A stretch of 64,000 bases of DNA from Pseudomonadota bacterium (GTDB taxonomy: Bacteria; Pseudomonadota; Gammaproteobacteria; Burkholderiales; Casimicrobiaceae): NCBI GenBank assembly GCA_018241785.1, contig JAFEDF010000239.1, positions 26,144 through 90,143 of the forward strand, given 5' to 3'. The position numbers and the translations under genes are program-made. A model generated the notes under the pieces. It worked only from the letters and a program-made list of their open reading frames with translations, was not told where the DNA came from and did not search any database. Below are positions 42,195-53,190 of this stretch, one piece after another. The first letter of the stretch is position 1, and each line of letters opens with the position of its first letter.

Positions 42195-42689
42195 ATGGGC
42201 GAGATCGCGAAGCTGTTGCCGCGCGCCAACATCGTCACCGGCCTCGACGTCGCCGACAAGGCACAGTTCTTCGCGGCGATCAGCCAGGTCTTCGAGCATG
42301 GCTCGGGTCTCGCGCGGGCCGGCGTCGCGGCGAGCCTCGCCGCGCGCGAGAAGCTCGGCTCGACCGGCCTTGGCCAGGGAGTCGCGATCCCCCACGGCCG
42401 CATCAAGGGCCTGCGCGAGCCGGTCGGCGCATATGCACGCCTGCTCCATCCGATCGGGTTCGGCGCCCCCGACGGCCGGCCGGTGACGCATTCGTTCGTC
42501 CTGCTCGTTCCCGCCGAAGCGACCGAGCGCCACCTCGAGCTCCTTTCCGAACTCGCCCAGATGTTCTCGGACGCGGCCTTTCGCGAGCGCCTCGCGCACG
42601 CCGCGGGCGCCGACGACATCGCCGCACTGTTCGATTCGTGGGGTCAGGTCTTGCCTTTTGCCCCCGCGGGGGCAAAAGGCAAGACCTGA
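42195..42689 (+). CDS. ptsN: PTS IIA-Ntr protein, C-terminus extended by a palindromic repeat
   Basis: REKLGSTGLGQGVAIPHGR (phospho-His), HLELLSELA. The last 15 or so codons are encoded by the palindrome. Confidence 0.94.
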   Translation: MGEIAKLLPRANIVTGLDVADKAQFFAAISQVFEHGSGLARAGVAASLAAREKLGSTGLGQGVAIPHGRIKGLREPVGAYARLLHPIGFGAPDGRPVTHSFVLLVPAEATERHLELLSELAQMFSDAAFRERLAHAAGADDIAALFDSWGQVLPFAPAGAKGKT

Positions 42690-42695
42690 CCCCAC
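42638..42695. repeat. Perfect 58-bp palindrome (REP/MITE-like), followed by a 12-bp tandem duplication TGACCCCACCCG (42687-42710)
   Basis: GTGGGGTCAGGTCTTGCCTTTTGCCCCCG|CGGGGGCAAAAGGCAAGACCTGACCCCAC: two 29-bp arms with no spacer. Confidence 0.93.
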
Positions 42696-42713
42696 CCGTG
42701 ACCCCACCCGCGC

Positions 42714-50560: not shown

Positions 50561-51424
50561 ATGACGTCCCACGACCGCCCCGCGCGCGCACGGCGCCCGC
50601 GCGGGCGCCTGATCGCGCTGATCCTCGCCATCGGCGTCAACCTGCTGTTCGTCGGCGTGCTCGTGTTCTCGGTCACCTGGCAGAACCGCGAGCCCGCCGC
50701 GGTGACCGCCGAGCTGTACGCCCCCCCGTCGGCCGACCTCACGCCGCTGCCCGCCGCGAGGCTGCCCGAGGTCGCGCCGCCGCGGCCGCTGCCCGCCCCG
50801 CCGCAGCTTCCGCCGGTGCCGGCACCCGCGCCGAAGCCGCCGCCTGCGCCGCCACCGGTGCCGTCGCAGGCCGACATCGAGCTCAAGGCGAAGCAGGAGG
50901 CTGCGAAGCAGCAGGAAGCGAAGCGCGAGGCCGAGCAGAAAGCGAAGCAGGAAGCGAAGCGGCAGGCCGAACAGCAGGCGAAGGCCCTCGCCTCCATGCA
51001 GGCGCAGGCCCAGCGCGAATTGCAGACGCGCGAGGATGCCGAGCGCCTGCGCAGGCAGGCCGAGGCCGAGGCGCAGATGCGTGCGCAGGCGGAGCAGGAG
51101 GCGCAGGCGCGCGCCCAGCAGGCCGCAGCCGCGACGGCACGAAGCCGCGCCGAAGCCGACTGGATCGACCGCATTCGAAGCAAGATCCGCAGCAACGTCA
51201 ACCTGCCGCCCGAGATCTCCGGCAACCCCGAGGCGATCTTCGACGTCGTCCAGCTGCCGACCGGCGAGGTGCTGACCGTCAGGATGAAGCAGTCGAGCGG
51301 CATCCCCGCCTACGACGACGCCGTGCAGCGCGCAATCGTGAAGTCGTCGCCGCTGCCACCGCCGCCGTCACCCGACCTCTTCCAGCGCGAGCTCGTGCTG
51401 CGCTTCCACCCGCACGAACCGTGA
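50561..51424 (+). CDS. tolA: TolA
   Basis: N-terminal TM, Pro-rich and then Ala/Gln/Glu/Lys-rich helical linker, C-terminal domain SSGIPAYDDAVQRAI. Confidence 0.9.
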   Translation: MTSHDRPARARRPRGRLIALILAIGVNLLFVGVLVFSVTWQNREPAAVTAELYAPPSADLTPLPAARLPEVAPPRPLPAPPQLPPVPAPAPKPPPAPPPVPSQADIELKAKQEAAKQQEAKREAEQKAKQEAKRQAEQQAKALASMQAQAQRELQTREDAERLRRQAEAEAQMRAQAEQEAQARAQQAAAATARSRAEADWIDRIRSKIRSNVNLPPEISGNPEAIFDVVQLPTGEVLTVRMKQSSGIPAYDDAVQRAIVKSSPLPPPPSPDLFQRELVLRFHPHEP

Positions 51425-51435
51425 ACGGCGAACGC

Positions 51436-51456
51436 GGGGTCAGGTCTTGCCTTTTG
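51436..51456. repeat. Second, single-arm copy of the ptsN palindrome unit
   Basis: GGGGTCAGGTCTTGCCTTTTG, 21/21 identical to 42640-42660. Confidence 0.9.
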
Positions 51457-53134
51457 GACGTTGCCGCTCTACACGCTCGAGAATCTGCAGCGCCACCCAG
51501 GTCCAGTCTGCGCGCTGCTCGACGACCTGCCGCAGCGCGATCGTGTAGTCGGTGCGGCCGGTGGCGAGGACGAGCCGCCGCCCCTCGCGATACTCATGCG
51601 TCGGCACGATCAGCGTGCGCGCAGACAGCGGCTTGTCGGGGCGCGACGGGGGCGGCAGGTAGAGCGCGTCGAAGCACGGGCCGAGACCGTGCGCATCGAC
51701 GCCATCGACCTCGATGCCCAGATCGCTGCGCGCTTCACGCTGCGCGTGCAGGCTGACCGCGACGACGCGCTCGGCGATCACCGAAAGTCCGGCCTCGATC
51801 TCGTCGCCGGCGAACCGGTTCACGCGGCGCACGACCCCCAGGACCCATTGCTCGCGGTTCGCCTCGCGCACGGCGACCAGCGTGCCCAGCATCAGCGACT
51901 GGCCAACGCCGCCGCCCGCGCAGATGCGAAGGCCGGCGACGCTGCGATCGCGAACCTGCCACAGCGACTGCGGAAAGCGCACGAGGCTTCCGGAGAGCGT
52001 GTCGCCCTCGTCGTTGGCAGCGGCGGCCGCGTGCGGGGCGCCGGCGACGGCGAATACCTCGATCTGGTCGGCCGGGGGTTCGGCCGCGACGGCGATGGGT
52101 CGCGCGAGCTCCTCGATGACCCGCGCCACGCCGATGCGGACCCGCGCCTCCTGCACGCAGCTGACGCGCGGGTCGCGGCGCATGTCGACATTCAGGTTCG
52201 GCGCGATCGCCGCGCGCGCTTTCTCGAGGATCGCCGCCCGCTTCGCGCCCTGCTCGCTCATCGGTCCCTGCTCGGTCGCGTCGGAGTTGCGCAGCGCGGC
52301 CAGCGTCACGTCGAGCTGCTCGGCGAGCGGCGTCGTGTCGAGGTAGCGCAGCATCGCGCCGGAGTCCTGGCCGGTCCGCCGCCGCAGCCCCTCGCGCCCC
52401 GCGACGTCGACGAAGAAGCCCTCCATCGTCTTCGGAATGGCGAGCAGCTCGAGCCGCCTGCCCCAGGCGCGAAACTGGGCGGCGACCCAGTCGAAGTTCG
52501 CCGGTGACAGATTGCCGCTGTTCAGCTGGTGCAGCAGCAGCACGTAGACGTATTCCTGCTCGACGCTCCAGCGCGCGCCCGCCGCGCCCGCCGCGGGGTC
52601 CTCGCGATCGAGCCCGAGCTCGGTGGCGCGCAGATAGGCGCGATGCAACTCGGACCAGCGTGCGGGAATCCAGTGCTCGTGGCGGCTGATGCGCAGCCTC
52701 GCGTCGATGCCGTAGTAGTGGACGAGCCGTGCGAAGAGCTGCGCGAGGCGCGGCTTCCAGCGCGCGTGCGCCGATGGAACGAGCGCCGCCTCGATCGCGG
52801 CCTGGTAGGCGCCGATGAACGCCTGTGCGAGGTCGAACGCCGCGGCCCAGAGGCGCTCGGCGATTCGCGGCGACGATTCGCAGTTGTCGACGAACTGCCG
52901 GACGAGCTTGCGCCGGTCGCTGCGCAGCGCCGCATCGAGATGCTGCAGCGCGTCGACCCGCGCGAGGTCGATCGGCCGCGCCGACTGGCGCATCGCGTCG
53001 AACGCGCGCAGGACCCGCTGCTGGCGCGCGACGAGGTCGAGCGTCGGCAATTCGTCGAGCCAGGCCGAGGCGGCGCGCACCGATGCGAGGGGGTCGGCGG
53101 CGGCCTGCGCGGAGGGCTTCAGGAAGGCGAACAT
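51440..53134 (-). CDS. Uncharacterised protein: helical N-terminal region plus PilZ-like C-terminal region
   Basis: About 564 aa from MFAFLK; RRDPR (RxxxR) and DRSVAG (DxSxxG) motifs followed by beta-rich GVVRR segments. Confidence 0.75.
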   Translation of the reverse strand: MFAFLKPSAQAAADPLASVRAASAWLDELPTLDLVARQQRVLRAFDAMRQSARPIDLARVDALQHLDAALRSDRRKLVRQFVDNCESSPRIAERLWAAAFDLAQAFIGAYQAAIEAALVPSAHARWKPRLAQLFARLVHYYGIDARLRISRHEHWIPARWSELHRAYLRATELGLDREDPAAGAAGARWSVEQEYVYVLLLHQLNSGNLSPANFDWVAAQFRAWGRRLELLAIPKTMEGFFVDVAGREGLRRRTGQDSGAMLRYLDTTPLAEQLDVTLAALRNSDATEQGPMSEQGAKRAAILEKARAAIAPNLNVDMRRDPRVSCVQEARVRIGVARVIEELARPIAVAAEPPADQIEVFAVAGAPHAAAAANDEGDTLSGSLVRFPQSLWQVRDRSVAGLRICAGGGVGQSLMLGTLVAVREANREQWVLGVVRRVNRFAGDEIEAGLSVIAERVVAVSLHAQREARSDLGIEVDGVDAHGLGPCFDALYLPPPSRPDKPLSARTLIVPTHEYREGRRLVLATGRTDYTIALRQVVEQRADWTWVALQILERVERQRPKGKT

Positions 53135-53190
53135 CGCGCGTCGGGGAGGACCGGTCGGATACAATTCGCAGGCGGGGGACAATCATTCCT

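Follow-up and report, generated by a model that had tools for sequence, protein, structure and literature searches.

The 21-nt sequence GGGGTCAGGTCTTGCCTTTTG that lies 11 nt after the stop codon of tolA is very probably a solo terminal inverted repeat (TIR) of a RAYT-like Y1/HUH element, a TIRtron, and the KGKT* tail (asterisk, stop codon) that two unrelated proteins share would then be the built-in reading frame of the element's own transposase gene. The window, i.e., the whole 64,000-nt stretch of DNA that was analysed, belongs to a 3.49-Mb draft genome (G000; 262 contigs, 69% GC, 99% complete). The original prediction had described an exact copy of one palindrome arm behind tolA, a minus-strand ...PKGKT* end and stop that this arm gives to the convergent gene, and the identical plus-strand ending of ptsN. 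All three are present, as the following features illustrate for the tolA site:

50561 to 51424, plus strand: tolA (287 aa, TonB_2 C-terminal domain), last gene of tolQ-tolR-tolA, stop codon at 51422 to 51424
51436 to 51456, plus strand: solo arm (singlet) of the repeat family, GGGGTCAGGTCTTGCCTTTTG
51440 to 51457, minus strand: final five codons of the 564-aa gene with its stop (P K G K T *), CCA AAA GGC AAG ACC TGA
51440 to 53134, minus strand: conserved 564-aa gene (580 aa if the start is the TTG at 53182)
51457 to 51469, no strand assigned: right flank GACGTTGCCGCTC, an imperfect inverted copy (11/14) of the left flank at 51423 to 51435

tolA and the 564-aa gene are convergent, and reading the reverse complement of 51440 to 51457 reveals that the arm supplies all bases but one of the latter's PKGKT* end. 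The 564-aa protein ends here in ...RQRPKGKT*, that is ...ILERVERQRPKGKT*, and its predicted element-derived tail peptide, if translated, is ...FDSWGQVLPFAPAGAK. Orthologues of this gene occur in 60/60 congeners searched, with a native C-terminus of the form ...ILE(K/R)xxRx* (ILERRPRA* in the sister species, G014). The gene had been labelled "PilZ-like"; we dropped this label because Pfam and NCBIfam, even at lenient thresholds, matched nothing in the 564-aa protein.

The inner end of the tolA-site arm reads ...TTTTG followed by GAC, continuing ...TTTTGGAC, rather than ...TTTTGCC as nearly every other arm of the family does; this copy is therefore a half-element, truncated on the inner side. 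The flanks form inverted copies over 13 nt on each side of the arm, with weak significance (z = -1.96), and the right flank codes for part of the new tail (ERQR).

Two further observations concern this locus. A 12-nt periodic repeat (AGCAGGAAGCGA-like) within tolA (window 50910 to 50981) codes for a Lys/Glu/Ala-rich central region, which is usual for TolA domain II. In addition, the first 44 nt of another contig (C135:1-44) are identical to window 51435 to 51478, comprising the arm and 23 nt of the 564-aa gene's tail, and are followed by a ~285-bp MITE and then by the ksgA-pdxA locus. As genuine contig overlaps in this assembly measure 125 nt, not 44, this match reflects either a chimeric contig or a sub-population with the MITE inserted in the tail of the 564-aa gene. 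The MITE-like element constitutes a second, self-complementary repeat family of ~285 bp with more than 70 copies in G000 and ends (C)TAGGGAAGCTCTGCGAAACGGGAACGGACCC. Its copies, among them C135:45-330, C174:4550-4840, C151:71749-72040 and C154:1-184, all lie outside the window; many are located at contig ends, and the terminal TAG often abuts gene ends.

The second site in the window involves ptsN and a complete doublet of the repeat:

42195 to 42689, plus strand: ptsN (EIIA-Ntr, PTS_EIIA_2), ending ...DSWGQVLPFAPAGAKGKT, that is ...FDSWGQVLPFAPAGAKGKT
42638 to 42695, no strand assigned: perfect 58-nt palindrome, an inverted doublet of the repeat with arms at 42640 to 42660 and 42673 to 42693
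42687 to 42710, plus strand: tandem duplication, TGACCCCACCCG twice (arm end plus flank)

The ptsN stop is located inside the second palindrome arm and yields the same KGKT* ending as that of the 564-aa gene. In fact, the doublet encodes the stop together with residues 150-164 (GQVLPFAPAGAKGKT, the last 15 aa), while ptsN in relatives carries 3-4 native residues past a conserved Trp (WEPAG*; WHGNP* in G014). A second TGA (42699 to 42701), in frame with ptsN and 12 nt downstream, may be the earlier native stop.

Analysis of the three frames explains why both genes end in the same register. The forward arm contains no stop, and the reverse-complement arm contains one in a single frame. The sequence AAA GGC AAG ACC TGA is the 3' end of the transposase gene itself (A-K-G-K-T-TGA). 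ptsN and the 564-aa gene share their register because the arm offers this single stop, in the transposase's own frame; the shared KGKT* register is forced by the repeat and is not a sign of stop-codon targeting.

The arm's association with a transposase is evident from other genomes. In a scan of one genome per species, the exact 23-mer GGGGTCAGGTCTTGCCTTTTGCC was found at at least 113 loci, with records from beta-, gamma-, alpha- and zetaproteobacteria that include isolates of Scleromatobacter, Roseateles, Chitinolyticbacter, Ferrigenium and Pseudoalteromonas; a few matches fall in short contigs of non-proteobacterial MAGs and may result from misbinning. At at least 11 loci in other genomes, two inverted arms ~900 bp apart bracket one gene for a 281-284-aa transposase, with the forward arm followed by ~46 nt and the ATG, and the stop located 16 nt into the reverse-complement arm. 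One locus (L139) carries two such units in tandem within 4.5 kb. The proteins contain the HUH motif NHYHLLI, the Tyr motif GVYTQRFN and a C-terminal helix-turn-helix, and match PF01797 (Y1_Tnp) with E values of 1e-13 to 1e-14. The one transposase tested against the NCBIfam equivalog NF047646, "REP-associated tyrosine transposase", scored 84.8 bits (cut-off 80). These transposases are merely 44-68% identical to one another, yet all end in ...AKGKT*, because the reverse-complement arm contains their final codons and the stop.

For G000 itself, a Pfam-model search (PF01797) found no Y1 transposase, and tblastn with the foreign transposases revealed one decayed remnant and no intact gene:

C149:1-137 (reverse strand) joined to C251:1-453: transposase remnant, spanning the 125-nt overlap of C149 and C251

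The remnant begins at about residue 76, and therefore lacks the HUH motif; ~45 internal residues are missing, the frame is shifted, and the sequence ends ...YQAKGKT* in an arm at C251:433-453. It is positioned directly 3' of a gene ending ...RVARART*. An intact copy could be hidden from the assembly, because a ~900-bp unit between assembly-breaking repeats falls below the apparent 1-kb contig cut-off. The absence of an intact transposase gene in G000, set against arms that are mostly 21/21 identical, thus points to recent activity, an unassembled intact copy or some other force keeping the arms uniform.

The repeat is not a private pair of copies but a genome-wide family. We counted 88-89 arms in G000 (up to 4 mismatches allowed), grouped into 51 elements, of which ~45 are unique after setting aside assembly overlaps and fold-back artefacts at contig ends. 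Perfect 30-nt inverted flanks at the contig ends of C161, C191, C102 and C157 were judged to be such artefacts and excluded from the statistics. The 17-mer core occurs three times in the window, compared with 0 occurrences in 100 shuffles; by chance, no arm at all would be expected. Most elements are +/- doublets, accompanied by ~13 single arms and a few triple or quadruple clusters, and a typical element spans 51-93 nt and consists of an arm, GCC, a variable self-complementary stretch, GGC and a reverse-complement arm. A search of the window with Rfam returned tRNA alone above the gathering threshold, and the palindrome gave sub-threshold, generic miRNA-hairpin matches.

Within the genus, the arm is held by 2 of 24 congeners and is absent from the other 22; the sister species G014, which appears 84-89% identical to G000 in nucleotides, has five copies. 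G000 and G014 have copies in common at the DUF808, queG-like and C128 sites, partly collapsed in G014, and the family is therefore older than their split. Both window copies are absent from G014 and are thus younger, or were lost there. At the C128 site the two species carry different central deletions, and at the 3' end of the queG-like gene in G014 (L177) the element has collapsed to GGGGTCAGGTCTGAC, leaving a tail of ...RGQV*. Comparison of these sites shows that copies decay through central deletion, the collapsed queG-like doublet still giving a stop. We also note that contig C138 (2803 bp) and C149:26173-26228 have an identical flank pair and different content: the C149 flanks enclose a plain doublet, those of C138 an arm, a 2.3-kb segment of two genes (nucleotidyltransferase-like and sulfatase-like) and a doublet. 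This difference resembles a cassette polymorphism between strains, with the repeat at its borders.

A custom codon-bias model trained on long ORFs called 3147 genes in G000; they cover 90% of the genome, and expected operons were reproduced. A complete 3' end is available for 3002 of them; six of these terminate in GKT*, which in five cases is encoded by the repeat. The original prediction had proposed that the element targets or creates stop codons and so appends a shared peptide: the creation of stops is supported by these five of six ends, while the common register, being forced, does not indicate targeting. Overall, eight genes end inside elements, with tails that include KGKT, KGRT and GQVLPFA:

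ptsN
the 564-aa gene
a DUF808-like membrane protein gene, AKGKT* in G000 and ANGKT* in G014
a queG-like gene, tail GRGQVLPFASVEAKGKT*
recN, tail GGVRSCLLPPAPGLSPPRGAKGRT*
two genes with a GQVLPFA* end
one gene at the end of a contig, possibly an artefact

In three more genes, an arm begins with the G of their TAG stop. The orthologues of the queG-like gene and of recN have unrelated native tails, extending 3-19 residues beyond the last aligned position. Four of the six genes that read into a forward arm do so in the GQVLPFA frame, an excess that is not significant (P ~0.3, hand calculation) and that is explained by survivorship, because this frame meets a stop soonest. We infer that the tails are translated and near-neutral.

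These results suggest the following mechanism. The autonomous unit consists of an arm, ~46 nt and the gene for the 281-284-aa transposase, the last five codons and stop of which sit in the reverse-complement arm. Non-autonomous derivatives (an arm, a short variable hairpin and an inverted arm) and single arms have multiplied to the ~45 elements of G000, surviving chiefly in tiny gaps at gene 3' ends. A copy landing on or just inside a gene end replaced the native tail in one of two ways: (I) a gene reading into the reverse-complement arm can stop solely at the arm's one TGA and ends in ...KGKT*, and (II) a gene reading into the forward arm acquires GQVLPFA... or GVRSCLLP..., with its stop in the spacer or the second arm.

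The location of the copies is in line with this reading. Fourteen of the 38 unique internal elements lie between convergent genes, compared with 11.5% of gaps genome-wide (binomial P = 5e-5), and of the 76 gene ends that flank an element, 47 are 3' and 29 are 5'. Stops lie a median of 6 nt from an element, compared with 74 nt for 5' sides (Mann-Whitney P = 3e-5); 32 of the 47 flanking stops are within 15 nt of an element and 10 overlap one. The corresponding empty sites in the closest relative, G014, measure 7 nt (between the TGA of tolA and the TTA belonging to the 564-aa gene) and 5 nt (between the TAA of ptsN and the ATG of hprK). Because the genome is so tightly packed (90% coding), insertions that spare promoters and coding cores touch last codons, and purifying selection alone predicts the clustering of elements at stops. 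The elements may also genuinely prefer certain targets, such as stop-like triplets or small palindromes. Metagenomes were scanned for contigs of the same species in which the site is empty, and none was found.

Proximity to stops also bears on an alternative that we consider unlikely, namely that copies are not tolerated selfish DNA but are retained as host RNA or DNA structures, such as mRNA 3' stabilisers, terminators or translation dampers near stops. The doublet hairpins are indeed very stable (-63 kcal/mol and z = -10.8 for the ptsN doublet as RNA), 32 of the 47 flanking stops lie within 15 nt, and the arms are still 21/21 despite a dead transposase gene. REPs of E. coli located no more than 15 nt from a stop reportedly lower translation, through ribosome stalling and tmRNA, which counts in favour of such a role. 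However, the tolA copy is a single arm for which folding of the tolA strand gave no significant structure (z = +0.69) and at which no terminator-like site was found, and orthologous copies decay by central deletion. Furthermore, 22 of 24 congeners are entirely without the repeat, and therefore no general function is needed.

A distinct mode of movement would be a rather improbable addition to the TIRtron reading: the family may, in contrast to the "peel and paste" of IS200/IS605, integrate in the middle of small palindromes located at gene ends, leaving a footprint behind. One-sided tandem copies of (T)GACCCC plus 5-9 nt of flank often follow the CCTGACCCC end, here and beside transposase units elsewhere, and in about one third of the internal doublets the flanks are inverted repeats of each other. 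These end duplications and inverted flanks may represent a transposition footprint, or insertion into pre-existing small palindromes. The 23-nt end is invariant across bacterial classes, while protein identity drops to 44%. If palindrome-centre insertion were true, the C-termini of convergent genes would be rewritten systematically. Separately, we observed end-plus-flank tandem duplications at window 42687 to 42710 and downstream of the transposase genes in L139, L088, L069 and L077, with TGACCCCACCCG x2, TGACCCCatttcg x2 and GACCCCatctacca x3 as examples, and many arms have an outer partial copy, GGGGTCA, 5-8 nt off.

It is very unlikely, judging from sequence, that the element seeks stop codons and adds a functional shared peptide, for instance a degradation tag that would co-regulate PtsN, the 564-aa protein and others. 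Such a role might be read into the 6-nt median stop distance with 10 of 47 3' ends overlapping an element, into the five repeat-derived tails among six GKT* ends, and into the retention of A(K/N)GKT* on the DUF808 protein in two species. Yet the arm imposes its register by having one stop in three frames, the transposase's own, and the transposase itself carries the KGKT tail. The tails are also heterogeneous (KGKT, KGRT, GQVLPFA, and GQV* after collapse), relatives manage without such tails, 29 of the 76 gene ends beside elements are 5', and purifying selection in a genome that is 90% coding accounts equally well for the proximity to stops. KGKT is also unlike known bacterial C-terminal degrons, e.g., the non-polar ssrA-type ...LAA, and a degron role of the shared tail would be unlikely. 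In published REP systems, C-terminal REP-encoded residues are probably neutral (PMC3733652), which likewise argues against a tag.

Finally, the proposal that the solo arm marks a repeat-mediated rearrangement that took tolB-pal from behind tolA, based on tolB-pal not adjoining tolA and tolB lying on another contig (C38), can be dismissed, since the order tolA, convergent 564-aa gene, pepN is found in nearly all of 30 congeners (wherever the contig extends far enough) with the repeat at 0 of the 30 tolA/564-aa loci fetched, the order SPOR gene (RlpA-like), tolB, pal is kept in G000 and the five relatives checked (L189-L193), tolA and tolB are ~925 kb apart on one contig in G013, and the partner arm anticipated beside tolB-pal is absent, C38 carrying no arm. 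On C38, tolB is preceded by the SPOR-domain gene and followed by pal (C38:1-3500). In this genus tolQ-tolR-tolA follows ruvB and tolB-pal is located elsewhere; the tol-pal split dates back to the ancestor of the genus and has nothing to do with the repeat.

The TIRtron reading of the tolA-site arm has a direct precedent. Di Nocera, De Gregorio & Rocco (2013, BMC Genomics 14:522; PMC3733652) described RAYT-like genes with long terminal inverted repeats instead of GTAG REPs, and named the units "TIRtrons" and their transposases "TIRYTs". Some of these TIRs share GGGGWSAS, some overlap a gene 3' end, and some occur as singles, dimers and clusters in families of moderate abundance. The same study reports that REP termini often give stop codons to neighbouring ORFs, that REPs also occur inside ORFs, and that the added C-terminal residues are probably harmless. 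Similarly to TIRtrons, the family described here has a Y1/HUH gene bracketed by long TIRs (at least 11 loci elsewhere, and the decayed remnant ending in an arm in G000), an arm that begins GGGGTCAG and fits GGGGWSAS, a TIR that overlaps the transposase gene 3' end, and copies occurring as singles, doublets and clusters (51 elements). It differs in that the transposase gene is wrecked here while ~45 elements persist, and in that eight host genes have TIR-encoded C-termini. A full-text search for the repeat core found this 21-23-nt TIR sequence in no searchable paper.

REPIN-RAYT systems (Nunvar 2010; Bertels & Rainey 2011, PMC3116915; Bertels 2017, PMC5581495) resemble the family in their short-spacer inverted doublets that form hairpins, in dozens of copies per genome that are mostly extragenic and at gene 3' ends, and in a Y1 transposase flanked by the same repeat. 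In contrast, the arms here have no GTAG tag: they start GGGGTCAGG, TAG or GTAG occurring upstream of some copies by chance, and a single arm is not self-palindromic. Group 2 and 3 RAYTs are vertically inherited and single-copy, whereas the present TIR family is more IS-like. Lineage-specific, single-copy inheritance does not apply, because the 23-mer crosses bacterial classes, L139 holds two units and 22 of 24 congeners are without the repeat. A further class of RAYTs, "Group 1", is widespread and may be transferred horizontally (Bertels et al. 2017; PMC5581495).

The transposase belongs to the Y1/HUH superfamily of IS200/IS605 (PF01797), and a single-strand mechanism is therefore presumed; by analogy with IS200/IS605 and RAYT enzymes, it would mobilise the elements as single-stranded DNA. 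IS200/IS605 elements, however, have sub-terminal hairpins and no TIRs, while the TIRs here measure 21-23 nt, and the NCBIfam IS200 model (NF033573) scores 21 bits against a cut-off of 55. Classical MITEs, which are DDE-mobilised, combine TIRs with direct target-site duplications. No direct duplication brackets the copies here; their flanks are unrelated or inverted, in addition to the one-sided end-plus-flank tandem duplications.

Rickettsia palindromic elements are repeats that encode parts of proteins. Together with intragenic or stop-donating GTAG REPs (PMC3733652), they share with our family the outcome that a selfish palindromic repeat adds residues and/or a stop and the gene survives. 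Here, the C-terminus is replaced and the stop comes from the transposase frame, unlike an internal in-frame insert.

In sum, elements and side effects of this kind are both already known, and the family is a well-populated example, with orphaned repeats, of the TIRtron/TIRYT class, which has barely been studied. A false lead on the tol-pal cluster is removed. For annotation, KGKT*, GQVLPFA... and GVRSCLLP... C-termini in Burkholderiales and other Proteobacteria should be read as repeat-derived and not as conserved motifs. PtsN (EIIA-Ntr) is a regulator with a replaced tail, and the same last four residues in two unrelated proteins are very probably a by-product of an element end that doubles as the transposase 3' end.
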